This document shows, in pieces, positions 10,285 through 63,645 of a stretch of 64,000 nucleotides of DNA; position 1 is the stretch's first letter; each line of letters begins with the position of its first letter. The DNA lies in the sequence record PQ826431.1. The stretch is one strand, 5' to 3'. The position numbers and the translations under genes are program-made. The notes below the pieces were generated by a model. That model saw only the letters and a program-made list of their open reading frames with translations, was not told where the DNA came from and searched no databases. The DNA comes from a phage.

Positions 10285-10311
10285 TGTTTCACACAACGAA
10301 AGGAGAATAAG

Positions 10312-10844: not shown

Positions 10845-10857
10845 AAAGGAGAAAGCA

Positions 10858-11612: not shown

Positions 11613-11627
11613 AACAGGAGAAAGATT

Positions 11628-11804
11628 ATGGCTACTTTTCAACAATTGAAAGATGTTTCACGTTTAGTAAGAAAAATCCGAGAAGCAGACGCTGCTGTGC
11701 GGAATGCATTAACGCCAGCAGAGCGTGAAGATCTTGAAGAGGAGGTGAAAACAGCCGAGAATGCTTTTGCTGTGTATCTTTCAACACTGTATACAGGAGG
11801 TTAA
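11628..11804 (+). CDS. hypothetical protein (58 aa)
   Basis: ATG after RBS CAGGAGAAAG; fills gap; not in track. Confidence 0.45.
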   Translation: MATFQQLKDVSRLVRKIREADAAVRNALTPAEREDLEEEVKTAENAFAVYLSTLYTGG

Positions 11805-12119: not shown

Positions 12120-12310
12120 TGTTTAGTTTCTTGATAATTGTTATGGTTGTTCTTTTCGCGGCATGGCTTTGGGATTTTGACCCAGGAGCAGCGCAGCAAA
12201 GAGCTACAGACTGGAAAGAACAATGTATTGTGCTCAAACATGAACGAAATGCGGAGAAATTTCTTGACCTAGAGTGTGATCGCCTTGTAAGATACAAGCA
12301 AGATAAATAA
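12110..12310 (+). CDS. small membrane protein (66 aa)
   Basis: track ORF trimmed to ATG after RBS CAGGAGGATG; one predicted TM helix. Confidence 0.5.
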   Translation: MPIVFSFLIIVMVVLFAAWLWDFDPGAAQQRATDWKEQCIVLKHERNAEKFLDLECDRLVRYKQDK

Positions 12311-25049: not shown

Positions 25050-25865
25050 TTATTTGTTTAAGTGGTCTTCGACCATTTTAATGAAACCTTCATTGCTGAA
25101 GGCTGTTGCAGCTTTTTCTCGGTAAACAAAAACTCCACGATCTTCATAGAGAAGTGTTTCTTCGTAATTAACTCCAGGGTTAACTACAACCATTTTTGTA
25201 CCCATACTAAGTGCAGGAAATAATTCCCAATTAAAATTGATAACTTGGTTTGAACATCCTACTACTACAACCAAATCTTGCATGGTCAAAGTATCGAACA
25301 AGTGAGCCATATCTGCATACAAAGGTGCAGCCTCACCAAAAAATACAACATTAGGCTTCACCCAGTTATAATCATCTATGTTTATACTATTGTAACCAAT
25401 ATCTACCAGTGTTTTGTAATCTCCAGGATGCATACGGTAAACTACTTCAGGAAGATATCCGTGTACGTGAATAACAGAATCTCTGTCTACACCTGCTCGC
25501 TCTAGTAGATCATCAACGTTTGTTGTCAAGTTTACTATTTGGTTAGGATATTCCTTAAACCACTTTGCTATTTGAATATGTGCAGCATTAGGTTGTACAT
25601 CTTTAAGCTCAACACGTCTTTTGTTATAAAATTCGTGTGTTTTGGCATACAAATCCATACCGTTCTCGTCTACACCACCGACCACTGGAAGATCTGGAGA
25701 TGTTCTAACACGATAACCTGCTTGGAAAGCTCCAATATCGCAGACCTCTTCTAAATCATATTCTTCCCATAAAGCACGACCACTATCTGTGTCTGTTCTA
25801 AATGTTCGAATCCCACTGTCTGCACTTAAACCTGCACCGCTTACAAAAATCACTCGTCTTGGCAT
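25050..25865 (-). CDS. Sir2-family (sirtuin-like) NAD-binding protein, 271 aa
   Basis: N-terminal FVSGAGLSADSGIRTFR (sirtuin GAG-S-x-x-SGI-P-x-FR-like motif), IHVHG motif; no Zn-ribbon cysteines seen. Confidence 0.65.
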   Translation of the reverse strand: MPRRVIFVSGAGLSADSGIRTFRTDTDSGRALWEEYDLEEVCDIGAFQAGYRVRTSPDLPVVGGVDENGMDLYAKTHEFYNKRRVELKDVQPNAAHIQIAKWFKEYPNQIVNLTTNVDDLLERAGVDRDSVIHVHGYLPEVVYRMHPGDYKTLVDIGYNSINIDDYNWVKPNVVFFGEAAPLYADMAHLFDTLTMQDLVVVVGCSNQVINFNWELFPALSMGTKMVVVNPGVNYEETLLYEDRGVFVYREKAATAFSNEGFIKMVEDHLNK

Positions 25866-31479: not shown

Positions 31480-31788
31480 TCAACAAGTAATTTCAAAAGG
31501 TGTATACGGTTCCGTATTTCTCATGATCCAAGGACTGCTAGGATTGCTCGGATCATAAGGACCAAAAGGTTTTATGGTCGGTTGTGTTTCTTTCTTCTGA
31601 ATCTCTTCAAAAATACGACGAAGTTCAGAATATTCTTGATCCACCATAAGATTCGGTGCATCTGATTCTACAGCTTGCAGGTTATCTTCCTTAAGAACAA
31701 TCTCACGAACAAGATTAACATCTTCTGTTTCTAAGATAACTTCTTTACGGATATTACCTACACTTTGAATAATTGTAATCTTATACAT
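31480..31788 (-). CDS. hypothetical protein (102 aa)
   Basis: ORF track. Confidence 0.55.
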   Translation of the reverse strand: MYKITIIQSVGNIRKEVILETEDVNLVREIVLKEDNLQAVESDAPNLMVDQEYSELRRIFEEIQKKETQPTIKPFGPYDPSNPSSPWIMRNTEPYTPFEITC

Positions 31789-32531
31789 TAATCCTCCTCA
31801 AGAGTTGAATAAAATTGAAGACCACCGTCCATATCGAAATAAGCAAATGTTAAGTTATTATTGAACACAGATCCAGTATCCATATAAACACGATTCGCAT
31901 TGATAATAGGTGTTTTTACATAAGAGTGTCCATGAAACACATAATCCACACCCATCACAACAGGAAGTTTCATTCCCTCTTTAGCACAGTCTACCATATC
32001 TCTGTCCCACATAAGTGCTTCAGCAAAACGGTTTTCCTGTGTTTTTGTCATCTTCGAAATGTATTCTGGAATATCTGTTACAGGGAGATATTCCAAAGAA
32101 GATGGATACCCACCATGAATAAACGCAAGTTTCATGCCTCTGTAGTTAACAATGAGAACAACAGGTAAATCTTCTGTCATCATTGCTAAGGCTGTAGCTC
32201 CTTCTTCACCACATTCTTCAAAGACCGTATATCCTCCATTTTGATACCAACACTCGTAGTAGCTACGATCTCCTTCCAGCATACCTTTAATCATCATGTC
32301 TTCATGATTGCCACGAATAGCGTAGCGATTGTGTTTACGAGTAAATTCTAAAACACAACGAAAGTTTTGCTTTCCACGGTCAGTAAGATCTCCTAGAGAT
32401 ACAACCACATCTGTATCTCGGATACCTAACTTTGCCTTTCCTTTTTCATACAAATTATAACAACCGTGTAGATCTCCAATTATAAAAAGATCTTGATCGC
32501 TTTTAACAGTAATTTCTCTGTGTATGATCAC
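31788..32531 (-). CDS. Ser/Thr protein phosphatase (calcineurin-like metallophosphoesterase), 247 aa
   Basis: GDLHG, GDLTDRG and GNHE motifs. Confidence 0.85.
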   Translation of the reverse strand: MIIHREITVKSDQDLFIIGDLHGCYNLYEKGKAKLGIRDTDVVVSLGDLTDRGKQNFRCVLEFTRKHNRYAIRGNHEDMMIKGMLEGDRSYYECWYQNGGYTVFEECGEEGATALAMMTEDLPVVLIVNYRGMKLAFIHGGYPSSLEYLPVTDIPEYISKMTKTQENRFAEALMWDRDMVDCAKEGMKLPVVMGVDYVFHGHSYVKTPIINANRVYMDTGSVFNNNLTFAYFDMDGGLQFYSTLEED

Positions 32532-37807: not shown

Positions 37808-38068
37808 TTACTCCGCAATTTGAGCCATGAGATCACGCAGTTCGGTAAAACCGCCTACGTATGTTACCTCCCCGTTCACTTCAGACAGAATTTGTGGAAA
37901 TGTGCGTGGAGGAACTCCGGTAAGATCAACAACTGTTTTAGTCATTGATTCTAAATCATAGTCTTGATCAAGACTTAAATATTCAAACTGTTTATTGCGC
38001 ATGGTTAATAGTTGTTTTGACATTTCGCAAAATTGACAGTTAGGTTTACCAAAAATTACAAATTCCAT
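37808..38068 (-). CDS. glutaredoxin-like protein (NrdC/NrdH-type), 86 aa
   Basis: thioredoxin-fold CxxC (KPNCQFC) and TFPQI...GG motif. Confidence 0.75.
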   Translation of the reverse strand: MEFVIFGKPNCQFCEMSKQLLTMRNKQFEYLSLDQDYDLESMTKTVVDLTGVPPRTFPQILSEVNGEVTYVGGFTELRDLMAQIAE

Positions 38069-38910
38069 TACCTCTCCTTATTAAGTAATACTGCTAAAGA
38101 CTGTTCAATACCTTTATTTAAATCTGATTTTGTAAGATAGTGACTGGTTACTAGTTGTGACTTCACCGGACGTGCTGCTGGAGCATTATAGGTTGAAGCT
38201 GATACCGCCGATATCTTAACAGGTTCTGGCATCTGTGTCAAGATCTTTTCCGCAAACTCCGCCCAAGAAATAAAATGGCTTCCTGCAAAATGGTAAGTCT
38301 TAACAGACCTTGACCAACCTGTTTTTAATACTTCAAAAATAGCTTCTGCTAAATCTGGAGCATATGTTGGACAAGAGAACTGATCAGCAACAACAATAAA
38401 ATCACGTTGTCCATCATTATAGCGAGACAACATGGTTTTTAGAAAGTTATTTCCAAATTCGCTATATACCGAGGCTGTTCGAATAATATATGCATTTGGG
38501 TTAACTCCTCGCACCATTTTTTCACCAAGTTCTTTCGTATACCCATAATTGTTTATTGGGTTAGGTGTAGTATCTTCAAAAATAGGATGAGAATAATTAA
38601 AAATATAATCTGTAGAAATATGCACAAAATCAATTTTAAGTTTGCTGCACACTGCCGCAATATTTGCAGGTCCATACGCATTAACAGCCAAAGCAGTAGC
38701 AAAATCATGTTCTGCTTTATCTACAGCCGTATAAGCGGCGCAATTAATAACACCATCTACATAATCTTCAACAATAGCGTTTCGCACAGCTTCAAAATTT
38801 GTAATATCTACACGTTCTTTAGGATAAATTAAAGATACATTTGAAGGAACCACTTTACGTAAAGCTTGTCCCAGTTGTCCATTACCGCCCAATACCAGAT
38901 ATGTTAGCAT
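38068..38910 (-). CDS. rmlD: dTDP-4-dehydrorhamnose reductase
   Basis: GGNGQLG, INCAAYTAVDKAE, HISTDYIF, YGYTKELGEK (YxxxK), RTASVY..GNNFLKTML closely match RmlD. Confidence 0.85.
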   Translation of the reverse strand: MLTYLVLGGNGQLGQALRKVVPSNVSLIYPKERVDITNFEAVRNAIVEDYVDGVINCAAYTAVDKAEHDFATALAVNAYGPANIAAVCSKLKIDFVHISTDYIFNYSHPIFEDTTPNPINNYGYTKELGEKMVRGVNPNAYIIRTASVYSEFGNNFLKTMLSRYNDGQRDFIVVADQFSCPTYAPDLAEAIFEVLKTGWSRSVKTYHFAGSHFISWAEFAEKILTQMPEPVKISAVSASTYNAPAARPVKSQLVTSHYLTKSDLNKGIEQSLAVLLNKER

Positions 38911-39470
38911 ACACCCTCGCTACGTAACTGTTGAAAAGATTTAGCCATTGCATCTTTTGTTGATAGGATAGGTTTAAAACCTTCGTCAAAAATCATATCG
39001 AAGCCCCAATCGATCCCTATGTCAGGATCATCCCAACGTAAACTTTGTTCACTAGAAGGGTCGTATGGAGTTGTGCATTTGTATTCAAAGATCGCATCCA
39101 TACTCAAAACTATAAAACCATGTGCCAAACCAGGAGGAAGCCAAAACTGCGTATGGTGTCGTGCACGAAGAACAACACCGTCCCAAGCACCGTAAGTTGG
39201 ACTGTCTTTACGTAAGTCTACAGCGAAATCCAATACTTCCCCACTTACACAACGAACAAGCTTACCTTGCGGATTATTTGTTTGAAAGTGCATTCCTCGC
39301 AAAACACCGAAGTTTGATTTAGACATATTATCTTGAACGAAAGTTTGTTTACCAATAATATCTTCGTATTTTTGTTCATTGTATGTTTCTAAAAAGAAAC
39401 CACGATCATCTTTATAAACGTCTGGTTTGATAATTACCGCACCTTCAATTTTTGTTTTTTCTACTTTCAT
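38904..39470 (-). CDS. rmlC: dTDP-4-dehydrorhamnose 3,5-epimerase
   Basis: DDRGFFLETY, FVQDN-SKS-FGVLRGMHFQ match RmlC cupin signature. Confidence 0.85.
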   Translation of the reverse strand: MKVEKTKIEGAVIIKPDVYKDDRGFFLETYNEQKYEDIIGKQTFVQDNMSKSNFGVLRGMHFQTNNPQGKLVRCVSGEVLDFAVDLRKDSPTYGAWDGVVLRARHHTQFWLPPGLAHGFIVLSMDAIFEYKCTTPYDPSSEQSLRWDDPDIGIDWGFDMIFDEGFKPILSTKDAMAKSFQQLRSEGVC

Positions 39471-39479
39471 TTTCTCTCC

Positions 39480-39806
39480 TTACCAGACATGTTGAGAAAT
39501 AATAGTTTCCGTTTTAATGTTATATTTTTCAAGTAGCTCTGCATAGGCTTCTTTTGCATTCTCATTCAATTGCTCAAGATCTACAGCTATGCTTCCTTCT
39601 CCACCTTCTAAATCAAGGCCATATATGCAATAAGACTCATCTGCATCGTAGAAAGGAGAGATGCGGCTTAAGTCAAGACCTTCTTGTAAGAACCAATTAA
39701 AATCTCCATCAAATTCTTCTTCAATTCTAGGATCTTCTCCTACAGCCTCTTCCCACTTATTAAAAGGTGCACCCTGTAACATACGCCATTCGATATCAAT
39801 ACCCAT
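39480..39806 (-). CDS. hypothetical acidic protein (108 aa)
   Basis: ORF track. Confidence 0.55.
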   Translation of the reverse strand: MGIDIEWRMLQGAPFNKWEEAVGEDPRIEEEFDGDFNWFLQEGLDLSRISPFYDADESYCIYGLDLEGGEGSIAVDLEQLNENAKEAYAELLEKYNIKTETIISQHVW

Positions 39807-41433: not shown

Positions 41434-42087
41434 TTAGCCTCGAAATACTGTTTTTGTTTCCGCCAGGTGCCAATAGAAATCCGCCTTGTTTACAAGAGTG
41501 TTGTACACCTCTGGATAAAAATGTTCTTCCTCTTTGTAACGATCCGCTGTTTCCCTGATTGACTTAGCTTTATCTTTTAGCCAAGCGAAGTGTGCCTCTT
41601 CCTCTGTAGCGAAGTAACCTAAATGCTTTCCTTTGTGTCCAGATGATTTAGAAGAAATCTTACCATCGGATTTTCTTACAGTTACCCCTAAAAGGGATTT
41701 TCTTTCCGTCCTTTTTGAGTAACTTAACAGAGTATTCACATATGCTGGAACAAACCTACAATACGCTGGACAATAGACCGTATTACCTTCAAGTACAAGG
41801 TCTTTGTCCAGAACAAAGTTTGCTACAAAGTTTTCTTGATACCACATGTCGAAGTTTGAAAACATAAACCACTCGTCACAAACCGTCACACCTGTATACC
41901 CAGGTCTTGCTTGTTCCATTTTATAGGCTCTTTCGAACATGTTTTTCCAAGCTTTGTAAGACGGGTCTGGCTTCCCGTCTACAAATAATCGTCTTTCTAC
42001 ATCAACTACTAAGGGGATTTCTCCCCTTTCGGTAGTAACGGTCACTGCACGTTTACCTTTGAGCATTTGACCTCCTACATGCTGCAA
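41434..42087 (-). CDS. homing endonuclease-like protein (degenerate HNH-type N-domain + AP2-like DNA-binding domain) between nrdA and nrdB
   Basis: YKAW..M..RAY...GVTVCDEW..F.NFDMW pattern shared with 52446 ORF; C-terminal GYFATEEEAHFAW AP2-like motif. Confidence 0.5.
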   Translation of the reverse strand: MQHVGGQMLKGKRAVTVTTERGEIPLVVDVERRLFVDGKPDPSYKAWKNMFERAYKMEQARPGYTGVTVCDEWFMFSNFDMWYQENFVANFVLDKDLVLEGNTVYCPAYCRFVPAYVNTLLSYSKRTERKSLLGVTVRKSDGKISSKSSGHKGKHLGYFATEEEAHFAWLKDKAKSIRETADRYKEEEHFYPEVYNTLVNKADFYWHLAETKTVFRG

Positions 42088-51507: not shown

Positions 51508-52233
51508 TTACTTGTTAATAATACCTGCGATATTAGGTTTAATGAAACCTGACCACTTCATGATCTTACCTTTATCATCAAAGAACACATACACTTTCTG
51601 TTTTTCATTATAAACGGCATGAACACCAGTGTATGCCCCTTCTGGACGATTGGCATTTCGTTCTTCAATTGAAGCGCATTCTTGTGCAATGGCTGAATCG
51701 ATATCTGAAGTTTTCCAAGTTTTCAGCAACTGTTGTTTAGTTGGATACTTGGAATCATTACTTTTCAATACCTCTTTAATAACTTTCTTTTCTGGATATT
51801 TTGAACGGATTAGAGTGTCACGAGACATACGCATGATACCAGCAGCCATTAGTGCCATTTGAACTGGCTCTGTAAATGTTTGTTCCAAAGCATCAAAATC
51901 AGTATACACAGTTGGAGTAAAAACATCGCCTACAGCATAGTCCAAGAAATTCATCGTATGTTCTTCACCAAAGAACATGTAAGTAAGATAACTGGATACT
52001 ACAAAAATATCCGCTGCTGCATCCAAGAGTTCTACATGATCGTTTACTTTCGCGGCTGTTTCATACTCTTTAAGCTCTTCACGAACGAACCCGATTTGGG
52101 ACATAAATAGCTCTTGAGTGAATTCAGGTTGTTCACCACCTCGTGCTTTGGCATTCCAATCAATTACGTGCTTTGCTGCATTTTTGAAAAATTCAGTATC
52201 GAATTTAATATCTTTAAAAAAATTCTCGATCAT
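51508..52233 (-). CDS. MazG-like nucleotide pyrophosphohydrolase-domain protein, 241 aa
   Basis: EExxxYE...ELLDAAADIF resembles MazG EExxE/D motifs. Confidence 0.4.
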   Translation of the reverse strand: MIENFFKDIKFDTEFFKNAAKHVIDWNAKARGGEQPEFTQELFMSQIGFVREELKEYETAAKVNDHVELLDAAADIFVVSSYLTYMFFGEEHTMNFLDYAVGDVFTPTVYTDFDALEQTFTEPVQMALMAAGIMRMSRDTLIRSKYPEKKVIKEVLKSNDSKYPTKQQLLKTWKTSDIDSAIAQECASIEERNANRPEGAYTGVHAVYNEKQKVYVFFDDKGKIMKWSGFIKPNIAGIINK

Positions 52234-52242
52234 TGTTTCTCC

Positions 52243-52434
52243 TTATTTAAAATATTGTTTTGTAAATTCCACCAGATATACAACAACTGCACCCATTTGT
52301 GTACCTGCTGCACCGTAGACAATAATTAGACTAACCTTCTGCCACCATGTTGGGTGAGGGAAAGTTGATGCGCCAATTATACCACAAGCAACAATAGAAA
52401 GGAACACAAGAACCAGAATAACTTCAATGCTCAC
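52243..52434 (-). CDS. small membrane protein (63 aa)
   Basis: ORF track; GTG start after RBS AAGGAGG; two TM helices. Confidence 0.5.
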   Translation of the reverse strand: MSIEVILVLVFLSIVACGIIGASTFPHPTWWQKVSLIIVYGAAGTQMGAVVVYLVEFTKQYFK

Positions 52435-52445
52435 TGCAACCTCCT

Positions 52446-53075
52446 TTATGTTTTAATCTTGCCAAAATACAATACTTCAGCTTCCTGTCTTGCTGATATA
52501 GCATCTTCAATATCAGTAAATGCTCCAAGACGGATATCTTTTCCTTGATAGGATATACGAGCAATCCATCTTTTTTCTTTCTCGCTCCACACAACACCTG
52601 TTTTACCAGAAGTGTTGTTTTTCTGTTTTCGTGTATTGTATGACTGGACAGACCTTGTAGCCCAGCGACAATTTTCTTTACTGTAATCTTTTTCCGAGTC
52701 TATTCTGTCAAGAGATAAACCTTTAGGTCTATCTCCCATATCCTCAAAAAATGCAGAGAATGAATTTCTCCAAGCATCGCAGACCTTAATACCACGACCA
52801 CCGTAGTATTCAAAGTGAGTATTGTTTTTGTTATAGCATCTCCCTAACATAGCTTCCCACGATTTGTATGCTCCTGTTTGTGTTGTTTGCGGTCTACACT
52901 TCGAACAATAAGAACTTTTATTCTTCCTAAGTGTTGCCATAGTTACCGTGCAAATATTACCACAATCACAAGAACAAGTAAAACGTCTTTTGCCATGCTT
53001 GTCCCTTTCAATCTCTTCTAAGACAGTATAACAACCACATTTCTTACCTACAAGGTCTACTCTCTTGGCTCCCAT
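52446..53075 (-). CDS. HNH-AP2 family homing endonuclease-like protein, 209 aa
   Basis: LDRIDSEKDYSKENCRWAT (HNH_3-like) and C-terminal AP2-like WIARISYQGKDIRLGAFTDIEDA. Confidence 0.6.
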   Translation of the reverse strand: MGAKRVDLVGKKCGCYTVLEEIERDKHGKRRFTCSCDCGNICTVTMATLRKNKSSYCSKCRPQTTQTGAYKSWEAMLGRCYNKNNTHFEYYGGRGIKVCDAWRNSFSAFFEDMGDRPKGLSLDRIDSEKDYSKENCRWATRSVQSYNTRKQKNNTSGKTGVVWSEKEKRWIARISYQGKDIRLGAFTDIEDAISARQEAEVLYFGKIKT

Positions 53076-54184
53076 GTTCCCTCCACCATTTCCCGTAAAC
53101 GGACACCTGTTGGTTTAGTAGGTATTCCACCATCAGAAAACTCTTCATACTCAATCTCAACAAATTTACCAATTAACATTTCGGCATTCTCTGCTTTACG
53201 ATAATTGATAGTCTCATGAGCATCTTTACGCATTAAGAATTCGACTACTTTACCATTTTCCATCTCACCTGTCAACACTCCATCGCCATTTTTATCACTT
53301 TTTGAATTTGTTACTTTAACTTCAAGGGTGTGGCGAGGCTTACGTTTAATAACGTCATAAGAACGTTTATCAAATTCGTAAACTCCGTGAGCATTACGAT
53401 ATACTACACCTTCAGCTTTCTCAAGTAAAGCTTTTTCATAGAAAGCATCAAACTGTTCTTGGTTTTCAATATACTCTGTATGAACTACGCAAATAAGCTC
53501 GTCAAGACCATAATCTTCAACTACTGCCTTAAGAGCAGTAAGAACATCAACACGTTTTTCAAACGGTAGATCTGGAACTGGAATATCGTATACGTAATAG
53601 TTCAGCAAAGGTGTATTTGCATTATGCTTCTTCCAGGCACTGTTAATTTGTTGTAGACTAAGGACACCTAACCCAGCAAACACTTCACCATCAAGAGGAT
53701 GACCAACAACTTCACTAATAAAGTTTGGAATACCTTTCCAATGAGGTGGCAGGTTGTACACTTCCCCAGCTTTTGATAAACACTCTCCTTTCATGTTAAT
53801 CATAGAACGTAACCCGTTCAGTTTGTATTGTGCATAACCAGGGAACACAACCCTTTCAGGATAATCTTTATAATCCTGGCATTTCATTGGTGTGGAAGGA
53901 ACATGGTTTTCAGCTTCTTCTTTTGTTTTATAATAGCCATTCTTTAACTGTTTTGTCCATTTGGCAAAAGCTTCAAGTTCAGCTTGTTCTTCTGGTGTTG
54001 TTTCATTGGAACGACCAATGTTTTTTGCTTCTGCTGTATAAGATTTTTCTGTGATTTTTCCACCTACCCTTCCATGAGCTACAGTAACAACTGCACCATC
54101 TGTATACACTGTCCACTGTTTAAGTTTTCCTTTTGAATCTTTACCATACAGCGTTTGATTTGTTTGTTGCATTAGTCCTCCCAC
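53057..54184 (-). CDS. ATP-dependent DNA ligase-like protein, 375 aa
   Basis: nucleotidyltransferase motifs I (KLNGLR, Asn replacing usual Asp), III (DGEVFA), IV (EGVVYR), V (VIKRK). Confidence 0.6.
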   Translation of the reverse strand: MGGLMQQTNQTLYGKDSKGKLKQWTVYTDGAVVTVAHGRVGGKITEKSYTAEAKNIGRSNETTPEEQAELEAFAKWTKQLKNGYYKTKEEAENHVPSTPMKCQDYKDYPERVVFPGYAQYKLNGLRSMINMKGECLSKAGEVYNLPPHWKGIPNFISEVVGHPLDGEVFAGLGVLSLQQINSAWKKHNANTPLLNYYVYDIPVPDLPFEKRVDVLTALKAVVEDYGLDELICVVHTEYIENQEQFDAFYEKALLEKAEGVVYRNAHGVYEFDKRSYDVIKRKPRHTLEVKVTNSKSDKNGDGVLTGEMENGKVVEFLMRKDAHETINYRKAENAEMLIGKFVEIEYEEFSDGGIPTKPTGVRLREMVEGTWEPRE

Positions 54185-54393
54185 TTAAAAACTGAAATTT
54201 TCAATCTGTTACACACTTCATCCAAATCTGCGTCGAGTAACGTTGTAGATGTTGCCAACATATAATCAATGCTTGTGAAACCTTGCCCTTTGGCATAGTC
54301 AAGCATATCTTCATACATATCTTCAAGATCACCGTCATCAAAAGTAGCTAGAAAATCCTCGTCCCCGCTACGAACATAAAATGCAGTACTCAT
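54172..54393 (-). CDS. hypothetical acidic protein (73 aa)
   Basis: ORF track. Confidence 0.5.
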   Translation of the reverse strand: MSTAFYVRSGDEDFLATFDDGDLEDMYEDMLDYAKGQGFTSIDYMLATSTTLLDADLDEVCNRLKISVFKWED

Positions 54394-54578
54394 TCATCTT
54401 CATCCCAAGATTCACAAGCACAACAATCATAGATTTCTATAATACCAGTACGTCCACAAGAAAGGCAAGTGATTTTATCACCGTAGAATACATAATTCTC
54501 GTCTCCGTTGGTATTCACGGAAATCAGATCACTGCCACAGGGACATTCCAACCAAGGCACAATGATATCTTTCTTCAT
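54390..54578 (-). CDS. small zinc-ribbon protein (62 aa)
   Basis: CPCGSD, CLSCG, CCAC. Confidence 0.5.
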   Translation of the reverse strand: MKKDIIVPWLECPCGSDLISVNTNGDENYVFYGDKITCLSCGRTGIIEIYDCCACESWDEDE

Positions 54579-54587
54579 GTTTTCTCC

Positions 54588-54740
54588 TTAACCTTTAGGT
54601 GTGCAGAATCCACGATCAAATACATTCTTACGGATGCCTTCTGCTAAAGCCATCTCACAAGCCCCTTGCGATCCGAATTCTTGTGTATAATCATTACTAC
54701 CATGACTCCAAAGAGCAAACAAAATATAGATTGTTGCCAT
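54588..54740 (-). CDS. hypothetical small protein (50 aa)
   Basis: ATG after RBS AAGGAGG; not in track. Confidence 0.35.
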   Translation of the reverse strand: MATIYILFALWSHGSNDYTQEFGSQGACEMALAEGIRKNVFDRGFCTPKG

Positions 54741-54749
54741 TTTTCCTCC

Positions 54750-55076
54750 TTAAGCATTCAGTTCGCTGTTGAGTTCATATATCTCCTCTTGAAGAGAATA
54801 GATCTCTTCCTCCAAACGGGAGATCTCTTCTTTTAGATATACCATTTCGGATTCTTTCTCTTCTAATTCATTTTCAAATTTTACTTTATTAGCCTCATTT
54901 TCATAATGCAGTTCAGCGTAATCATCACGCATTTGTTCAATAAGATGAATCAGAGACAAGATATAATTGTCTCCCGTTTCATCACACCACTCTTCACCGT
55001 GACGGAGAACGGTAATTCGTCCAGTATCTTCATCTAAAATTGTCTCATATTTACAATCATCTGTATAAATCTGCAT
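54750..55076 (-). CDS. coiled-coil protein (108 aa)
   Basis: ORF track; heptad-rich C-terminus. Confidence 0.55.
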   Translation of the reverse strand: MQIYTDDCKYETILDEDTGRITVLRHGEEWCDETGDNYILSLIHLIEQMRDDYAELHYENEANKVKFENELEEKESEMVYLKEEISRLEEEIYSLQEEIYELNSELNA

Positions 55077-55085
55077 TATTTCTCC

Positions 55086-55490
55086 TTATTGAAGTTTAAG
55101 TGAACCACGAAGACGTTTCTCTTGCTGATCACGGATATATTGTGGAACCTCGTGAATTGAATCATTACCGTGCCTATTTTCAACAACTAAAGAGATAACT
55201 TGATAACCAAACTCTTCAGCAAGAGCTAGATAAGGTTTAAGTTCTTTCTCTGTGGTTGAAGTATTAGAAACAATAATCTTGTTAAGATTAGATGCCATAG
55301 CATCACGAACAATACCCTGACACCATGCGTGTGCTTTACCTACATTTTCTGGCTTCCAATCGTAAACACCACTCTCTGTGTAATGATATTGATCTGCCTC
55401 ACAGATAGGCCAATAACCTTCAGAAATAATTTCTGCTACTGTAGATTTACCAGCACCTGAAACACCACGTAAAATGATAAGTTGTTTCAT
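55086..55490 (-). CDS. P-loop nucleotide kinase (polynucleotide kinase-like), 134 aa
   Basis: Walker A GVSGAGKST; immediately downstream of RNA ligase gene. Confidence 0.6.
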   Translation of the reverse strand: MKQLIILRGVSGAGKSTVAEIISEGYWPICEADQYHYTESGVYDWKPENVGKAHAWCQGIVRDAMASNLNKIIVSNTSTTEKELKPYLALAEEFGYQVISLVVENRHGNDSIHEVPQYIRDQQEKRLRGSLKLQ

Positions 55491-56423
55491 TTATCCTCCA
55501 AAAAAGTTTTCGATTTTTTCACGTCGCTCTTGCTGATTTAAAGCAGCCCATTGAATCTTCGTAAAATTATTTCGAATCCATTCTAACAAAGCGTAATATT
55601 CTTCGTCAACCATTTGTTTGGCATTTTTTGGATTATCCCAAATCAGATCCCACTTTTTATCTCCACCGCGCATAAGAAACTTCTTAGTAAGATAGTGTGG
55701 TGATTTAATTTTTAAAAGTAAGTTGAACGGATAGTTTGTTTCACGAACTACAAACCCTTCGTGTTTACAATGTTTAGACATTTCAACAACATCTGAAAAC
55801 TTAACCATTGGATGAACTTCAGGACGCTTAAATTTGGTGACAGAAGCAATTCCATCAAGAGCACCTTCAGGTAACATAAAACTTGTCCCATCAGGATTTT
55901 GAATTCTGGCACCAATTAAGTATGCACCTGGTTCTTCTTCGACAATATGCGGATCAGAAGGATCACAGATTTCAAAAAGGAAAGTTGCTTTTGCACTCTC
56001 TGTCCATTTGATGAAATGTTCTATGTCATCACACTCTGAAATAATATGATTCTTTGCAATACTTGCAAAATCTGATTCAAGGCTTCCTGTTGTCGATACA
56101 ATAAGTTGACCTTTATATACACCTACAGAGGCCATAAAACCATTTACTTTACGAACCACATCTACAAGTTCATCCGCTGGTAGATCTGTGCCATTCTCAA
56201 AACGATTAAAAATCTTAGTGAAAGGCCAAATAACAACATTGTCATCAGCATCAACAACGATTCCGCGACATTCTAGAAGACGAGAATCAATGCTCCATAA
56301 GTTATCCCAGAAAACTTTGTTCTTATACTTAAGAACAGATAGACCAGAATACTCTCCTTCTTTATATGTTTTCTTATGAACTAAACCTTTTTCAACCAAA
56401 TCGTCGCAATTAAATTTAGCCAC
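55491..56423 (-). CDS. RNA ligase (Rnl-type nucleotidyltransferase), 310 aa
   Basis: motif I RKVNGF (K-x-x-G), motif IV EGFVVRE, motif V LLKIKS. Confidence 0.6.
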   Translation of the reverse strand: MAKFNCDDLVEKGLVHKKTYKEGEYSGLSVLKYKNKVFWDNLWSIDSRLLECRGIVVDADDNVVIWPFTKIFNRFENGTDLPADELVDVVRKVNGFMASVGVYKGQLIVSTTGSLESDFASIAKNHIISECDDIEHFIKWTESAKATFLFEICDPSDPHIVEEEPGAYLIGARIQNPDGTSFMLPEGALDGIASVTKFKRPEVHPMVKFSDVVEMSKHCKHEGFVVRETNYPFNLLLKIKSPHYLTKKFLMRGGDKKWDLIWDNPKNAKQMVDEEYYALLEWIRNNFTKIQWAALNQQERREKIENFFGG

Positions 56424-56424
56424 A

Positions 56425-56976
56425 TTATTCTCCTTTGATTATTTTGTGATGGTCTACAGTCACGATATCTCGTTTACTCATCATAGAAATTATCTCATCA
56501 AAATGCAAGATTTTTCCGTGTGCATCCCAACCCACATCTAACATTTTACCATAAGCTTCATCAGGGAAAGATCCGTGGGAATGCCCGTGTAGCATGATTG
56601 ATCCACGACCTTGTTTATTCCAGGAGGCCATAGGGTAATGGCTTAAGACGAAGAACAGCTTCTGATATTTCACTTCGTCATAATACACCACTTCTCCATA
56701 CTCTGCAAGCACTTCTCGGTGTTTGCTGTAGTCATGGTTCCCAACACAGTAGGTGATATCTCCTTGGAGACGGGAAGCAATTTTACGGGTATCTTCTTCA
56801 GTTCCGAAACAGAAGTCGCCCAAATGCCACATCTTAACACCAGGAGTAGTAGCACATTTGTTCCATGCTTCGATCAAGGCTTCTGTCATGTGGTCCATAT
56901 CTTCCCACGGACGATATTCAGGAGCAAACTCTCGAATACGTTTATGCATAAAATGCAAATCGCTTGTAATAAACAT
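56425..56976 (-). CDS. calcineurin-like metallophosphoesterase, 183 aa
   Basis: DLHFMH, GDF, GNHD, HGHSH motifs. Confidence 0.7.
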   Translation of the reverse strand: MFITSDLHFMHKRIREFAPEYRPWEDMDHMTEALIEAWNKCATTPGVKMWHLGDFCFGTEEDTRKIASRLQGDITYCVGNHDYSKHREVLAEYGEVVYYDEVKYQKLFFVLSHYPMASWNKQGRGSIMLHGHSHGSFPDEAYGKMLDVGWDAHGKILHFDEIISMMSKRDIVTVDHHKIIKGE

Positions 56977-57332
56977 TAGTATAATCCCTCGCTAAATAAT
57001 TCATGGTCGTGACCATTACGCTCATGGTCGATCTGGTCAGCATTTTCCGCGATAATGTAAGCATCCGCACGACTCCACCAATTGTAATACTGATCGATAA
57101 AGCCTTGATTATCTGGTGTGCACAAAGTTTTGTTGATTACACCTGCTTCTTTCAACACGTTTAACTGTGCATATAGTACAGGATTTGCATGTCGAACACA
57201 AGGAATAATTAATTCTTCACCATTATTCAAAATATACTTATTTGCAGCACAGACGATAACACGTTGCGCATAATGCCCCTCACCAATCCAGGTAAGAGGT
57301 TGGTAACAAATGTTGTTTTCAATACCACTCAT
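56976..57332 (-). CDS. hypothetical protein (118 aa)
   Basis: ORF track. Confidence 0.55.
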   Translation of the reverse strand: MSGIENNICYQPLTWIGEGHYAQRVIVCAANKYILNNGEELIIPCVRHANPVLYAQLNVLKEAGVINKTLCTPDNQGFIDQYYNWWSRADAYIIAENADQIDHERNGHDHELFSEGLY

Positions 57333-57338
57333 TGTTTC

Positions 57339-57482
57339 CTAATCCTCCTCTCTTAAGTTATCCTCGAAAAAACTAGTATCTGGAAGTAAAAGATCATTGC
57401 TTGTGTCGGGCCAATCCTCTTCTTCTCTGTAGATAAAGTAACCTTCGTCCTCTTCTTGTTCCGACCAAACCGAATGATGCAT
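57339..57482 (-). CDS. small acidic protein (47 aa)
   Basis: ATG after RBS TAAGGAGAG; not in track. Confidence 0.35.
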   Translation of the reverse strand: MHHSVWSEQEEDEGYFIYREEEDWPDTSNDLLLPDTSFFEDNLREED

Positions 57483-57491
57483 GTTCTCTCC

Positions 57492-57848
57492 TTAGTAGTG
57501 CACACGAATCATTTTAATACCATAACGCTGCATGGATTCTTTTGCAAGCATGAATTTATCCCCAGCGGCGGGATTAGAAGTATGCACGAAAATGGTAGGT
57601 GAACCAAAGCAAGGTTTACCAAACGCCAGAAGTTCTTCCAGATGCAGGAAAACATCATACCCATCTTGGTCTGACTCCATACCCAAATCGTTGTCAAAAT
57701 GCCACTCGTCTACAAAACGATAACCCTTCTGCACCTCATTCATGTAGTGAGAGGCAAGAAGTTCCTGTGATGTTTTAAACCAGATTGCATCTGGACAACC
57801 ATAATCTTTTGGATCACGTAAATCATCAAGCCAAATAATAGTACTCAT
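57492..57848 (-). CDS. hypothetical protein (118 aa)
   Basis: ORF track. Confidence 0.55.
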   Translation of the reverse strand: MSTIIWLDDLRDPKDYGCPDAIWFKTSQELLASHYMNEVQKGYRFVDEWHFDNDLGMESDQDGYDVFLHLEELLAFGKPCFGSPTIFVHTSNPAAGDKFMLAKESMQRYGIKMIRVHY

Positions 57849-61602: not shown

Positions 61603-61677
61603 GGCCCTGTAGCTCAATGGGAGAGCTGTCGGCTCATAACCGATAGGTAGCTGGATCGAAACCAGCCAGGGCCACCA
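61603..61677 (+). tRNA. tRNA-Met (anticodon CAT; initiator/elongator/Ile2 not resolved), incl. CCA
   Basis: manual cloverleaf: acceptor GGCCCTG/CAGGGCC, D GCTC/GAGC, anticodon loop CTCATAA, T-arm GCTGG-ATCGAAA-CCAGC. Confidence 0.8.
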
Positions 61678-61679
61678 AC

Positions 61680-61754
61680 GTCTTTATGGTGTAATGGATA
61701 GCACAGGAGTCTTCTAAACTCTTAGTCAAGGTTCGATTCCTTGTAAAGACACCA
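61680..61754 (+). tRNA. tRNA-Arg (anticodon TCT), incl. CCA
   Basis: manual cloverleaf: acceptor GTCTTTA/TAAAGAC, anticodon loop CTTCTAA, T-arm CAAGG-TTCGATT-CCTTG. Confidence 0.8.
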
Positions 61755-61950
61755 GAACATTTTAACATGAATTAGCTCAAGTGATTTGAACCCACTACTG
61801 ATCATGGTGGCAGAGAATGAGGCAAGTATGTCAGACATTATAAACAAAGGCCACGGTTATATTAGAAGACATAAATGCTCGAAGAGCACCGTTCGTTGAG
61901 AACGGGGGTTGGTGGAGTCACCATTCATGGTAAAATGTTTTAAAAAACTA

Positions 61951-61979
61951 TTGACAACTAACATTATTTTATGTTAGAT
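61951..61979 (+). promoter_or_regulatory. promoter (TTGACA-17-TTAGAT)
   Basis: consensus -35; upstream of tRNA-Ser. Confidence 0.5.
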
Positions 61980-61988
61980 TATAAGTAT

Positions 61989-62079
61989 GGAAGGGCAAAT
62001 CGACGTGGCGACGAAAACGGTCTTGAAAACCGCCGAGCTTGAAAGAGCCTTGGGAGTTCGACTCTCCCTCCTTCCGCCA
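61989..62079 (+). tRNA. tRNA-Ser (anticodon TGA), type II long variable arm, incl. CCA
   Basis: acceptor GGAAGGG/TCCTTCC, anticodon loop CTTGAAA, variable-arm hairpin GCTT-GAAA-GAGC, T-arm GGGAG-TTCGACT-CTCCC. Confidence 0.7.
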
Positions 62080-62084
62080 GATTA

Positions 62085-62170
62085 GGTAGATTGGTGAAAT
62101 GGTAGCCACAACAGTTTGCTAAACTGTAGTCGGAAACGGCGTGTAGGTTCGAGTCCTACATCTACCGCCA
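62085..62170 (+). tRNA. tRNA-Ser (anticodon GCT), type II, incl. CCA
   Basis: acceptor GGTAGAT/ATCTACC, anticodon stem ACAGT/ACTGT loop TTGCTAA, T-arm GTAGG-TTCGAGT-CCTAC. Confidence 0.75.
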
Positions 62171-62303
62171 AGTTCTTTTTAATATAGCTTACTTTAATAG
62201 AGTAAACTTTCAGCAGATGGCCCCCCCACCATCTTACTGATAACTCATAGTTAGTGGTGTGAACACTGGCTATTTTAAAAAGAATTTTAAATATTAGTAT
62301 TTA

Positions 62304-62391
62304 GGTGAGTTAATTCCGTAGGGGTAGCGGGGCAGACTGTAAATCTGTTATCATTGCGATTCGGGTGGTTCGACTCCATCACTCACCACCA
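62304..62391 (+). tRNA. tRNA-Tyr (anticodon GTA), type II, incl. CCA
   Basis: acceptor GGTGAGT/ACTCACC, anticodon loop CTGTAAA, long variable arm. Confidence 0.7.
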
Positions 62392-62397
62392 AATTAA

Positions 62398-62483
62398 GAT
62401 GAGTTGGCTGAATGGTTTAAGCGGCGGACTGTTAATCCGTGTTCGAAAGAACGATATAGGTTCAAATCCTATACTCATCGCCA
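62398..62483 (+). tRNA. type II (long variable arm) tRNA; manual fold gives anticodon GTT (Asn), identity uncertain
   Basis: acceptor GATGAGT/ACTCATC, 3-bp D stem, anticodon stem GCGGA/TCCGT loop CTGTTAA, variable hairpin GTTC-GAAA-GAAC, T-arm ATAGG-TTCAAAT-CCTAT. Confidence 0.5.
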
Positions 62484-62490
62484 GAATTAT

Positions 62491-62567
62491 GGACTTGTAG
62501 AGTTAAGGTAAACCCCCAGTCGCCAAGAGGCTTCTGGAATTGCAGGTATCGAATCCTGCCGAGTCCC
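62491..62567 (+). tRNA. tRNA-like element with non-canonical anticodon domain (possible pseudo-tRNA)
   Basis: acceptor GGACTTG/CGAGTCC and T-arm-like GCAGG-TATCGAAT-CCTGC present, but no 5-bp/7-nt anticodon arm. Confidence 0.3.
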
Positions 62568-62686
62568 AGAAAAGAAACAGGGTCGCTCCCTGTAAGTCGT
62601 CCAACTGAAGCCCACTGCGGTGTTCCTCCTCCCACAGTTTAACTGTGTTCTGGTCAACATCAAGCATGGTTGAAGGGGCGCAATAT

Positions 62687-62762
62687 GCTTCAATAGCTCA
62701 GTTGGTAGAGCACTTGCCTTGTAAGCATGAGGTCGTAGGTTCGAGTCCTACTTGGAGCACCA
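62687..62762 (+). tRNA. tRNA-Thr (anticodon TGT), incl. CCA
   Basis: D-arm TAGCTCAGTTGGTAGAGCA, anticodon loop CTTGTAA, T-arm GTAGG-TTCGAGT-CCTAC; one T-T mismatch in anticodon stem. Confidence 0.75.
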
Positions 62763-63037
62763 ACACAACATTAAGAGCACTGTGATTGATCGTCGTATCC
62801 TGTGCACAAGGTCTGTTCGAAAGACAGTGTTCTTAGTATTGTGTTGATCACACAAAAAGAGTCACCTGAAACTTGACCGGAGTAGGGTTGGATGGGGTAA
62901 AAGAAGAAGCGGCTCTCCCATCGACAGCAACGAAGAATAATATTTGACTTTGGTTTTGTATTATTTTAAGTTAGCTTACCGAACGTAGGGCTAGTCACCC
63001 AATGGGATACTCGTCACTGTCCCACTCAATAAAACTA

Positions 63038-63068
63038 TTGACAACCAATAGTAAAATGTAGTATAGTA
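63038..63068 (+). promoter_or_regulatory. promoter (TTGACA-17/18-TATAGT)
   Basis: consensus -35; upstream of tRNA-Gly. Confidence 0.5.
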
Positions 63069-63078
63069 AAGAGGTAGG

Positions 63079-63152
63079 GCGTTCTTGGTGTAGCGGTAGC
63101 ATTCCGTCCTTCCAAGTCGGCGGCACGAGTTCGATCCTCGTAGAACGCTCCA
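63079..63152 (+). tRNA. tRNA-Gly (anticodon TCC), incl. CCA
   Basis: acceptor GCGTTCT/AGAACGC, anticodon loop CTTCCAA, T-arm ACGAG-TTCGATC-CTCGT. Confidence 0.75.
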
Positions 63153-63250
63153 AATTATTTAATAAAGGGTTGCCAGAAAACTTTCTCTTTTACTCATGGT
63201 TTTCTCCTTCTCTCACACCTCTTCTGGTTGCCCTTCATTAAATGATTTAT

Positions 63251-63326
63251 TGGTTTGTAGTGTAGTCAGGTAGCACACGACACTTTGACTGTCGTAGGTT
63301 TGGTTCAAATCCAGACAGACCAGCCA
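63251..63326 (+). tRNA. tRNA-Gln (anticodon TTG), incl. CCA
   Basis: acceptor TGGTTTG/CAGACCA, anticodon stem CGACA/TGTCG loop CTTTGAC, T-arm TTTGG-TTCAAAT-CCAGA. Confidence 0.7.
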
Positions 63327-63331
63327 TATAA

Positions 63332-63408
63332 CGGAATTTAGCTCAGTTTGGTAGAGCATACGCTTTGGGAGCGTAGGGTCGCAGGTTCGAATCCTGCAAT
63401 TCCGACCA
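63332..63408 (+). tRNA. tRNA-Pro (anticodon TGG), incl. CCA
   Basis: acceptor CGGAATT/AATTCCG, anticodon stem TACGC/GCGTA loop TTTGGGA, T-arm GCAGG-TTCGAAT-CCTGC. Confidence 0.8.
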
Positions 63409-63414
63409 ATTTAA

Positions 63415-63488
63415 TGTTTCGTAGTTCAATGGTAGAACCCACGACTGATAATCGTGAGACACAAGTTCGATTCTTGTCGAAACAACCA
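63415..63488 (+). tRNA. tRNA-Ile (anticodon GAT), incl. CCA
   Basis: acceptor TGTTTCG/CGAAACA, anticodon stem CACGA/TCGTG loop CTGATAA, T-arm ACAAG-TTCGATT-CTTGT. Confidence 0.75.
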
Positions 63489-63490
63489 AT

Positions 63491-63560
63491 TTCCCGTTAG
63501 ACTTACAGGATAAGAGTTCCACAACTTATTGTGATGCTGGTTCGAATCCAGCACGGGATA
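63491..63560 (+). tRNA. tRNA-like element with degenerate anticodon arm (possible pseudo-tRNA); no encoded CCA
   Basis: canonical T-arm GCTGG-TTCGAAT-CCAGC and acceptor TTCCCGT/ACGGGAT but anticodon region forms CACAA-CTTA-TTGTG hairpin (4-nt loop). Confidence 0.3.
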
Positions 63561-63566
63561 CCTAAT

Positions 63567-63645
63567 AGCGGGATAGAGGAGTCTGGTCGTCCTCGCCAGT
63601 TTCATATGCTGGAGATCATTGGTTCAAATCCAATTCCCGCCTCCA
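63567..63645 (+). tRNA. tRNA-Met (anticodon CAT), second copy, incl. CCA; A1-C72 unpaired
   Basis: acceptor AGCGGGA/TCCCGCC, anticodon stem CCAGT/GCTGG loop TTCATAT, T-arm ATTGG-TTCAAAT-CCAAT. Confidence 0.65.

Follow-up and report, generated by a model that had tools for sequence, protein, structure and literature searches.

Can a phage that carries genes for a phosphoesterase, an RNA ligase and a kinase side by side repair broken RNA by itself? This question is raised by three minus-strand genes at positions 55086-56976 of a 64,000-nucleotide stretch of phage DNA (sequence record PQ826431.1; the whole stretch analysed is called the window below). The window comes from a Phapecoctavirus (Stephanstirmvirinae, myoviruses of ~150 kb), a phAPEC8-type Escherichia coli phage. 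Anti-phage effectors that cut tRNA are common and include PrrC, RloC, PARIS, retron-linked PtuAB, Cas13 and Cas12a3. To our knowledge, T4 Pnkp/Rnl1 is the only experimentally established phage repair answer.

A preliminary description of the sequence had read the three genes as the catalytic modules of RNA repair, namely a calcineurin-type metallophosphoesterase (MPE), an Rnl-type ligase and a Walker-A kinase. The three open reading frames (ORFs) were found exactly at these positions together with all of the motifs that it had quoted: DLHF (residues 6-9), GDF (53-55) and GNHD (79-82) in the MPE, KVNG (92-95), EGFVV (222-226) and LKIKS (237-241) in the ligase, and GVSGAGKST (9-17) in the kinase. 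The Pfam matches of the three proteins, given below, lie well outside what chance would produce. The protein families, active sites and co-occurrence patterns described below agree with the predicted function, an RNA repair trio encoded by three separate genes. We conclude that the cassette probably encodes a phage RNA break-repair ('heal and seal') pathway. Escherichia phages Mt1B1_P17 and WPEC1 share 99.2% identity with the window over the 2.8 kb around the cassette, and dozens of other Phapecoctavirus members share 96-99%; 122 phage records matched.

A predicted RNA ligase of the Rnl1 clade

The ligase gene (55491-56423, minus strand, GTG start) encodes a putative ATP-dependent RNA ligase of 310 amino acids, which matched Pfam RNA_lig_T4_1 (PF09511) with an E-value of 5e-15 and 56.3 bits (cutoff 28.3) over model positions 1-227. 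Searching the PDB with the single sequence gave no match, and a family profile was needed. The profile, built from 42 homologues, matched T4 Rnl1 and no other entry (E 5e-11), and hhalign aligned the ligase to T4 RnlA with a probability of 96%. When the AlphaFold2 (AF2) model (pLDDT 93.6) was compared with the PDB by Foldseek, Trl1-LIG and T4 Rnl1 ranked at the top (1.6e-13 to 9e-12), followed by archaeal Rnl3 (4e-10 to 2e-7), T4 Rnl2 (~1e-6) and Naegleria Rnl5 (~1e-5); DNA ligases scored 1e-4 or worse.

Mutagenesis in the Shuman laboratory reportedly identified R54, K75, F77, K99, G102, E159, E227, G228, K240 and K242 as essential in T4 Rnl1. These residues align with R53, K70, F72, K92, G95, E151, E222, G223, K238 and K240 of the ligase, and nine of the ten are invariant in the 42 family members, and F72 is nearly so. 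Because of the profile match to T4 Rnl1, the conserved residues and the Foldseek ranking, we assign the protein, on sequence and model, to the predicted Rnl1 clade of RNA ligases (T4 Rnl1/fungal Trl1) rather than to the DNA ligases or capping enzymes. The Rnl-type identity first read from motifs therefore stands, now with a PF09511 match, the conserved T4 Rnl1 residues and an Rnl1/Trl1-like model. The score against the RnlA equivalog model of NCBIfam (TIGR02308) was 23.9 bits, far under the cutoff of 242, and the protein is not a full-length equivalent of T4 RnlA with its 120-amino-acid C-terminal tRNA-specificity domain. It appears to represent a distinct short subfamily of the Rnl1 clade.

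A stand-alone kinase related to polynucleotide kinases

The kinase gene (55086-55490, minus strand) encodes a stand-alone P-loop protein of 134 amino acids that resembles 5′-OH polynucleotide kinases. It matched Pfam AAA_33 (E 2.7e-10, 41 bits; cutoff 27), phrog_2071 and, at 8e-8, phrog_505 ('polynucleotide kinase'). As the single-sequence search of the PDB returned P-loop noise only, a family profile was needed here too. The best match of this profile (30 homologues) was Capnocytophaga Pnkp1 (4XRP, 3.5e-7), with Rhizopus RazKIN (9D8A, 5e-5), T4 Pnk (2e-4) and CthPnk (2.4e-4) in second to fourth place. RazKIN is a stand-alone tRNA-splicing 5′-OH kinase (PMC11571804). Weaker matches were PSTK (2e-3), gluconate kinase (5e-3), nicotinamide riboside kinase (0.02) and adenylate kinases (at least 0.05). 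All 134 residues aligned with residues 1-149 of T4 PseT in hhalign (probability 97%, E 3e-11).

The P-loop reads G9-V-S-G-A-G-K15-S16, D33 aligns with the T4 general base D35, and V115-P116 align with T4 V131-P132, the pair that lines the 5′ nucleobase pocket. K15, D33, R106 and V115-P116 are invariant in the 30 family members, and position 16 is either Ser or Thr. A role as a deoxynucleoside monophosphate (dNMP) kinase, a kinase of nicotinamide adenine dinucleotide (NAD) salvage or another small-molecule kinase is less likely, since the profile ranking puts polynucleotide kinases above nucleotide and small-molecule kinases. The protein did not fall among dNMP kinases; its match to a dNMP-kinase PHROG covers residues 1-35, the P-loop only. 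Placement in the 5′-OH polynucleotide kinase clade of T4 Pnk, CthPnk and Trl1-KIN is thus predicted with good, although not perfect, support, and the closest solved relatives of what had been described as a Walker-A kinase are polynucleotide kinases of RNA repair and tRNA splicing.

A metallophosphoesterase of the aq_1665 type

The MPE gene (56425-56976, minus strand; 183 amino acids) matched Pfam Metallophos (E 3e-5, 24.9 bits; cutoff 21.5) and phrog_547, and its profile matched Aquifex aq_1665 in the PDB (1XM7, E 3e-23), which corresponds to the COG4186/MPP_AQ1575 type. The metal-binding motifs D6-x-H8, G53-D54, G79-N80-H81-D82, H113 and G131-H132-x-H134 are invariant in 42 members, and comparison of the AF2 model (pLDDT 95) with known structures confirmed the binuclear metallophosphoesterase fold. 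The protein did not belong to the end-healing clade of the CthPnkp phosphatase and lambda phosphatase, and the NCBIfam model PdeM (ligase-associated nuclease) gave only a weak match (E 0.003, far below the cutoff). A literature search on COG4186 returned no report on function. The MPE is best described as a predicted intact binuclear enzyme of the aq_1665 type, a functionally uncharacterised clade.

Binuclear metallophosphoesterases can open 2′,3′-cyclic phosphates, as measured for lambda phosphatase and for the CthPnkp phosphatase domain (PMC2190708). We propose from the gene neighbourhood only that the MPE heals 2′,3′-phosphate ends. Thus, of the earlier assignment of a calcineurin-type MPE to an RNA repair cassette, the motifs and the fold held, whereas the tie to repair comes from the neighbourhood and is one-sided, as described below. 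A second MPE gene (31788-32531, minus strand), 24 kb from the cassette, encodes a lambda-phosphatase homologue (Pfam Metallophos, E 2.7e-13; PDB 1G5B lambda phosphatase, E 5.5e-27) and is an alternative candidate for 3′-end healing.

Co-occurrence, loss and fusion of the genes in other phages

Co-occurrence was analysed in 52 loci anchored on the ligase (49 viral contigs and phages AlexBoehm, Mydo and PAK_P4; ligase identity 37-87%), which cover phages of Escherichia, Klebsiella, Proteus, Pseudomonas, Vibrio, Aeromonas, Ralstonia and Acinetobacter as well as metagenomic contigs. The MPE lay within 7 kb of the ligase in all 52 loci and the kinase in 50. Although the phages and their gene orders differed widely, the MPE was mostly next to the ligase and encoded on the same strand; the commonest order was MPE-ligase-kinase on one strand, with at least three other orders among the 52 loci. 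A wider count in 50,697 phage records found the ligase in 729, the kinase in 625 and the MPE in 1410. Ligase and kinase numbers ran nearly in parallel in the host genera Escherichia (199 and 198), Pseudomonas (177 and 173), Klebsiella (36 and 36), Acinetobacter (24 and 24) and Campylobacter (23 and 23).

Natural deletions were also found. A 153-kb metagenomic relative, whose MPE is 95% identical to that of the window, is missing exactly the ligase and the kinase and still has the cREC gene, the 118-amino-acid gene, the DNA ligase gene and the MazG gene that lie near the cassette in the window (see below). Two further relatives (L064 and L065) also have no ligase-kinase pair. The site of the pair in these close relatives holds one unrelated ORF of 112 amino acids (L062:10558-10896, on the 153-kb contig) or nothing. 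The absence of exactly these two genes from close relatives indicates that the pair is gained and lost as a unit; ligase and kinase form an obligate, dispensable unit, and the MPE is its constant companion without being dedicated to it.

No fusion between members of the trio was found among the 52 ligase loci. In Ralstonia phage RSP15, the label 'metallophosphoesterase' placed on the ligase proved to be a mis-annotation, as the ORFs are separate. However, one phage-type contig (L061:3351-5714) encodes a 787-amino-acid fusion of an AAA_33 kinase, a Metallophos domain and RNA_lig_T4_1 (compare phrog_8238). The ligase domain of this fusion was the closest outgroup found (probability 97.9%, E 5e-13, 277 aligned columns), closer than T4 Rnl1, and its kinase domain was weakly similar to the cassette kinase (probability 79%). 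The same contig carries, at 8520-12120, a separate aq_1665-type MPE between phosphoribosyl pyrophosphate (PRPP)-synthetase-like and NAMPT-like genes, whose pairing recalls NAD-reconstitution genes. With an Acb2/Tad1-like gene close by, the region looks like a counter-defence island.

A proposed pathway of RNA repair

The pathway that we favour would proceed in three steps. By homology to T4 Pnk, CthPnk and RazKIN, the kinase would phosphorylate the 5′-OH end of a broken RNA. The aq_1665-type MPE, judged by its neighbourhood only, may open or remove the 2′,3′-phosphate, possibly assisted by the cREC protein. The ligase, given its Rnl1 residues and fold, would self-adenylylate on Lys92, transfer adenosine monophosphate to the 5′-phosphate and seal the break. 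The substrates would be tRNAs cut by host defence nucleases. The most likely biological role is counter-defence, which sustains translation when host anticodon nucleases or similar effectors fire. Two precedents are of this kind: T4 Pnkp and Rnl1 repair tRNA-Lys cleaved by PrrC, and tRNA splicing in Mucorales uses a split, stand-alone ligase and kinase (PMC11571804). In the HIDEN-SEQ study, moreover, a T4-like phage needed its PseT orthologue on a clinical isolate (conditional essentiality), which suggests that end-healing kinases matter on natural hosts.

Probable accessory genes and a possible link to NAD

More than three genes probably make up the functional unit. Upstream of the MPE in the window, a gene at 57492-57848 (minus strand) encodes a 118-amino-acid protein that matched Pfam cREC_REC (PF20274) with an E-value of 1e-13; its REC-type active-site residues (DD, FDNDLG, VHTSNP and K98) are conserved in homologues, and it is a probable accessory component. 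Such proteins are predicted to resolve cyclic phosphates (Iyer et al. 2022), and in rV5- and Mydo-type phages the gene comes immediately after the ligase. Downstream of the cassette, a MazG-like nucleotide pyrophosphohydrolase gene (51508-52233, minus strand; phrog_671; Pfam PRA-PH, E 4e-6) belongs to the same conserved neighbourhood and was found downstream of the ligase in 14 of the 52 loci.

A Sir2-family protein is encoded at 25050-25865 (minus strand). It matched the NCBIfam Sir2/CobB models (E 1e-30), is annotated as Sir2 in phage ukendt, and is 46-61% identical to the sirtuins that lie 1.2-3 kb from the ligase in 12 loci, as an orthologue of the ligase-adjacent sirtuin of rV5-/Mydo-type phages. 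The gene is not adjacent to the ligase in the window; it is located within the same leftward gene block at a distance of 30 kb. Its N-terminal half (25378-25734) could not be aligned to ukendt by megablast, with flanks 96-98% identical; the stretch is locally hypervariable, and the gene is a candidate conflict gene.

Iyer, Burroughs, Anand, de Souza and Aravind (2022; Viruses 14:1977, section 3.7.3) predicted RNA repair for the rV5/Mydo neighbourhood, in which they listed a sirtuin, a T4-like tRNA ligase, cREC, a nucleotide kinase, MazG and an occasional calcineurin-like phosphoesterase. They proposed an NAD-using repair in which the sirtuin strips a 2′-phosphate as KptA/Tpt1 does. The ligase, kinase, phosphoesterase, cREC and MazG genes of this set all lie within 51508-57848 of the window. 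However, 40 of the 52 ligase loci had no sirtuin within 10 kb and 41 had no cREC. Because most ligase loci outside enterobacterial phages lack both, we assigned the two genes an accessory role and not a core one; enterobacterial phages have added cREC, MazG and the sirtuin in a lineage-specific manner. In the pakpunavirus PAK_P4 (L006:3496-9857), as in pakpunaviruses generally, the order MPE-ligase-kinase is immediately followed by genes for a ribose-phosphate pyrophosphokinase, a nicotinamide phosphoribosyltransferase and a Poa1p-type Macro domain. This layout indicates that RNA repair and NAD/ADP-ribose genes are linked even without a sirtuin or cREC.

The gene directly upstream of the MPE (56976-57332, minus strand; phrog_839) encodes another protein of 118 amino acids, whose membership in the system is doubtful. 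It had no match in Pfam, NCBIfam or the PDB, also when a family profile was used, and no informative fusion partner. Its 298 representative homologues, retrieved by exhaustive searching with HMMER, show the conserved signature VCAAN...RH...QGFID...LFSExLY and in many cases form the C-terminal domain of a longer protein. The gene was near the ligase in only 3 of the 52 loci, and we therefore left it out of the core. For the label 'anti-restriction nuclease' that some records give it, no support was visible.

Evidence against the repair pathway and alternative explanations

The repair pathway is a prediction, and several findings weigh against it. In T4 Pnk the acceptor-site residues R38, D85 and R126 are essential (PMC2831316). 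The kinase has His36 (nearly invariant) at the position of R38 and Asn76 (invariant) at that of D85; its invariant R106 aligns with T4 R122, not R126, over a 7-residue gap, and the counterpart of R126 is ambiguous. Mammalian Pnkp likewise has no counterpart of R38. In the AF2 model, the C-terminal region of the ligase consists of ~65 amino acids in short helices, compared with 120 in T4; it aligns with the first helices of the T4 domain and is without an insertion of ~45 amino acids. As this region is about half the length of the T4 tRNA-specificity domain, the T4 substrate specificity cannot be transferred to the ligase. In HIDEN-SEQ transposon data for the Vequintavirus Bas54, mutants in the orthologues bas54_0207 to bas54_0211 (sirtuin, cREC-like, RNA ligase, polynucleotide kinase and phosphoesterase) suffered no loss of fitness, either on K-12 or on two uropathogenic isolates. 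The genes of the trio are dispensable on laboratory hosts. The association with the MPE, in addition, is not reciprocal. Among 80 loci anchored on the MPE, the ligase was present in 32, the kinase in 33 and both in 31, and 48 were counted as without ligase and kinase. MPE genes occur in phages of Staphylococcus, Listeria, Enterococcus and Bacillus, in the first three without ligase and kinase, and the close relatives that lost the pair kept the MPE. The MPE domain of the 787-amino-acid fusion is of the GDxxDRG lambda-phosphatase type, unrelated at the family level to the aq_1665 type. The fusion supports the trio at the level of activities, yet it also feeds the view that the aq_1665-type MPE has another job.

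That job could be, for example, the hydrolysis of nucleotide or ADP-ribose-derived molecules, with 3′ healing left to cREC, to the lambda-phosphatase-like protein at 31788-32531 or to host enzymes. We consider such independence of the MPE possible, if somewhat unlikely. It would account for an MPE that is alone in 60% of its own loci, is found in phage groups without this ligase, outlasts the loss of ligase and kinase, and lies between PRPP-synthetase-like and NAMPT-like genes on the very contig whose fused protein has its own MPE of another clade; the lambda-phosphatase homologue of the window also belongs to a clade with demonstrated 2′,3′-cyclic phosphodiesterase activity. What it explains poorly is the presence of the MPE within 7 kb in 52 of 52 ligase loci, usually adjacent and on the same strand despite the variety of phages and gene orders, and the invariance of its active-site residues. 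Another explanation keeps the repair function and changes the chemistry to a Trl1-like, NAD-dependent one, as already proposed by Iyer et al. (2022). The cyclic phosphate would be opened to a 2′-phosphate by cREC or the MPE, the ligase would need this group and leave it at the junction, the sirtuin would remove it with NAD+ like Tpt1/KptA, and cREC and MazG would clear the ADP-ribose cyclic-phosphate by-product. The ligase model fits fungal Trl1 ligase domains as well as T4 Rnl1, stand-alone Trl1-type ligases that require a 2′-phosphate exist, and a basic cluster that follows motif V (K247, K248, R252 and K257) is conserved in the ligase family but absent from T4. In addition, cREC, MazG and an orthologous sirtuin are all encoded in the window, the sirtuin and cREC genes stand directly beside the ligase in rV5-/Mydo-type phages, and pakpunaviruses place NAD-salvage genes and the Poa1p-type Macro domain next to the ligase-kinase pair. 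On the other hand, the sirtuin gene of the window is 30 kb away, RNA 2′-phosphotransferase activity is not known from any sirtuin, and a core pathway cannot depend on genes that most ligase loci lack within 10 kb (40 of 52 for the sirtuin, 41 of 52 for cREC). Furthermore, the 2′-phosphate pocket of Chaetomium Trl1 (R334/R337) could not be mapped onto the ligase; a broader profile that included T4 RnlA and the ligase domain of the fused protein matched only T4 Rnl1 and archaeal Rnl3 in the PDB and did not reach Trl1. We consider this chemistry possible but rather unlikely. Its fullest form is quite unlikely: the cassette would be the core of a Trl1/Tpt1-type tRNA ligation in bacterial viruses, with a ligase that needs the 2′-phosphate, the sirtuin as an NAD-dependent RNA 2′-phosphotransferase, cREC as a new metal-independent cyclic phosphodiesterase and the aq_1665-type MPE, in what would be the first function known for its type, as an RNA end-healing enzyme.

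Two further explanations would take the genes away from RNA repair. The kinase and MPE could process DNA ends for the ATP-dependent DNA ligase encoded 0.9 kb downstream of the cassette (53057-54184), which would make the cassette one of DNA repair or replication. A DNA ligase gene lies within 5 kb of the module in 33 of the 52 loci, T4 Pnkp and MciKIN act on DNA ends as well, and the weak PdeM match of the MPE, together with the Pseudomonas putida MPE as a structural neighbour, points in the same direction. We nevertheless regard this as very unlikely, as the kinase tracks the RNA ligase (50 of 52 loci) and not the DNA ligase (33 of 52), the DNA ligase stays in the relatives that lost the ligase and kinase, and the RNA ligase is clearly of the Rnl1 clade. 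Finally, the annotation 'RNA ligase and tail fiber protein attachment catalyst', which PHROG and GenBank carry over from T4, would make the ligase mainly a tail-fibre attachment factor like T4 gp63, and the N-terminal domain of T4 rnlA does tolerate insertions poorly. However, the Bas54 orthologues were rich in insertions, with ~90-400 reads per site compared with 0 for capsid genes (HIDEN-SEQ supplement), and the ligase orthologue itself, with a mean of ~190, tolerated them like non-essential genes. This tolerance fits accessory genes and speaks against an essential role in tail-fibre attachment. The ligase is also strictly coupled to the kinase and is encoded in an early or metabolic gene block, not among the tail genes, so that this role is extremely improbable.

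Comparison with known repair systems

A known phage system with the same logic is T4 Pnkp (PseT) with Rnl1 (RnlA). The two share the ligase clade with all catalytic residues, a kinase domain homologous over its full length, the order of 5′ kinase, 3′-end healing and sealing, phage encoding and dispensability on laboratory hosts. They differ in that the T4 kinase is fused to a DxDxT acyl-phosphatase, whereas the cassette kinase stands alone and its candidate healer is a binuclear metallophosphoesterase. The cassette ligase falls short of Rnl1 by 64 residues and has a truncated C-terminal domain, and in the kinase His and Asn take the place of the essential Arg38 and Asp85 of T4. T4 pseT and rnlA lie ~1.4 kb apart with genes between them, whereas the cassette genes abut.

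The bacterial systems Pnkp-Hen1 and Pnkp1-Rnl-Hen1 (Clostridium thermocellum, Capnocytophaga) combine the same trio of kinase, binuclear metallophosphoesterase and ATP-dependent ligase, and the Capnocytophaga Pnkp1 kinase was the best solved match of the kinase family. Bacterial Pnkp is, however, one fused polypeptide with a ligase of another clade, as opposed to three proteins with an Rnl1-type ligase, and no methyltransferase, Hen1 included, was found among the Pfam-scanned neighbours of the cassette. The 787-amino-acid fusion likewise joins the three activities in one chain, with an MPE domain of the other type.

With fungal and plant Trl1 the cassette shares the ligase fold, which fits Trl1-LIG and T4 Rnl1 equally well. 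The split pathway of Mucorales (stand-alone RNL, KIN and Tpt1) consists of separate proteins, as the cassette does, and supplied the second-best solved kinase match, RazKIN (PMC11571804). Trl1 uses a 2H cyclic phosphodiesterase and a 2′-phosphate with Tpt1; neither a 2H nor a Tpt1/KptA protein was found here, and the sirtuin and cREC are candidate analogues. The rV5/Mydo neighbourhood has the same gene families, at 36-75% protein identity to the genes of the cassette region, in a different arrangement. Its sirtuin gene is adjacent to the ligase rather than 30 kb away as in this Phapecoctavirus, and its cREC gene follows the ligase rather than preceding the MPE. The phosphoesterase, 'occasional' in Iyer et al. 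(2022), is constant with this ligase family.

The idea of RNA repair is not new, as several GenBank records already label the genes putative RNA ligase, polynucleotide kinase and phosphoesterase and Iyer et al. (2022) predicted the function. Within the literature searched, what goes beyond these sources is the obligate pairing of ligase and kinase, the one-sided link to the aq_1665-type MPE and the natural deletion variants without the pair. The module occurs in >600 sequenced phages, including therapeutic candidates against E. coli, Klebsiella, Pseudomonas, Acinetobacter and Vibrio. If the repair pathway is real, RNA repair would be a widespread counter-defence that could shape host range on strains with tRNA nucleases, and the module would offer the first functional handle on aq_1665-type metallophosphoesterases, cREC domains and ligase-linked sirtuins.

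Gene layout, tRNA cluster and other features of the window

The cassette is close to the start of a leftward gene block that spans 24.7-60.1 kb. The TAA stop codon of the ligase abuts the ATG of the kinase (TAA|ATG), the TAA of the MPE is separated by one base (T) from the GTG of the ligase, with a strong AAGGAG upstream, and the stop codon of the upstream 118-amino-acid gene overlaps the MPE start as TAATG. The abutting junctions implied by the preliminary description, which had called the genes contiguous and translationally coupled, are thus real. Gene packing is, however, equally tight throughout the block, and because compact spacing is the rule there, it is no special property of the trio. 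A scan for promoters and terminators gave sites no more numerous than in shuffled controls, so no operon boundaries are claimed.

A tRNA gene cluster (61603-63645, plus strand) runs rightward at 61.6-63.6 kb and diverges from the leftward block. It starts 4.6 kb from the cassette and comprises 10 genes detected by ARAGORN and two type-II tRNA-like genes detected by Rfam. The proximity of such a cluster, which had been noted before, is therefore real; the 'layered' counter-defence drawn from it does not follow, as proximity is no evidence of a functional link. A tRNA cluster lies 3-4 kb from the module in phage AlexBoehm as well. Three genes of the cluster stand out (61989-62075, 62304-62388 and 62398-62483). 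ARAGORN missed two of them, one Ser(UGA)-like, with GCCA at its end, and the other Tyr(GUA)-like. The third, called tRNA-Asn(GUU), immediately follows the Tyr-like gene; with its 86 nt and long variable arm (Tyr/Ser-type body) it is an odd type-II tRNA with an Asn anticodon. We also considered intron-bearing phage tRNAs that would need a splicing ligase and rejected them, since the long tRNAs are type-II tRNAs with long variable arms.

Other differences from related phages were noted along the window. An HNH endonuclease gene (52446-53075, minus strand; phrog_374, E 1e-72) is located between the genes for the DNA ligase and MazG and overlaps the 3′ end of the former by 19 nt. It is missing at this site in phages ukendt and Schickermooser, a 98% identical copy is present in a metagenomic relative, and it is probably a mobile homing endonuclease. 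The genes for RmlD (38068-38910) and RmlC (38904-39470) are kept, and ~2.1 kb with the rmlA and rmlB genes of ukendt is missing (39479-39691 compared with L003:18983-21071), so that the phage-encoded dTDP-rhamnose pathway is only partial. Between two ribonucleotide reductase subunit genes, where ukendt has 41 bp, the window has an extra ORF of 217 amino acids without a Pfam match (41434-42087, minus strand).

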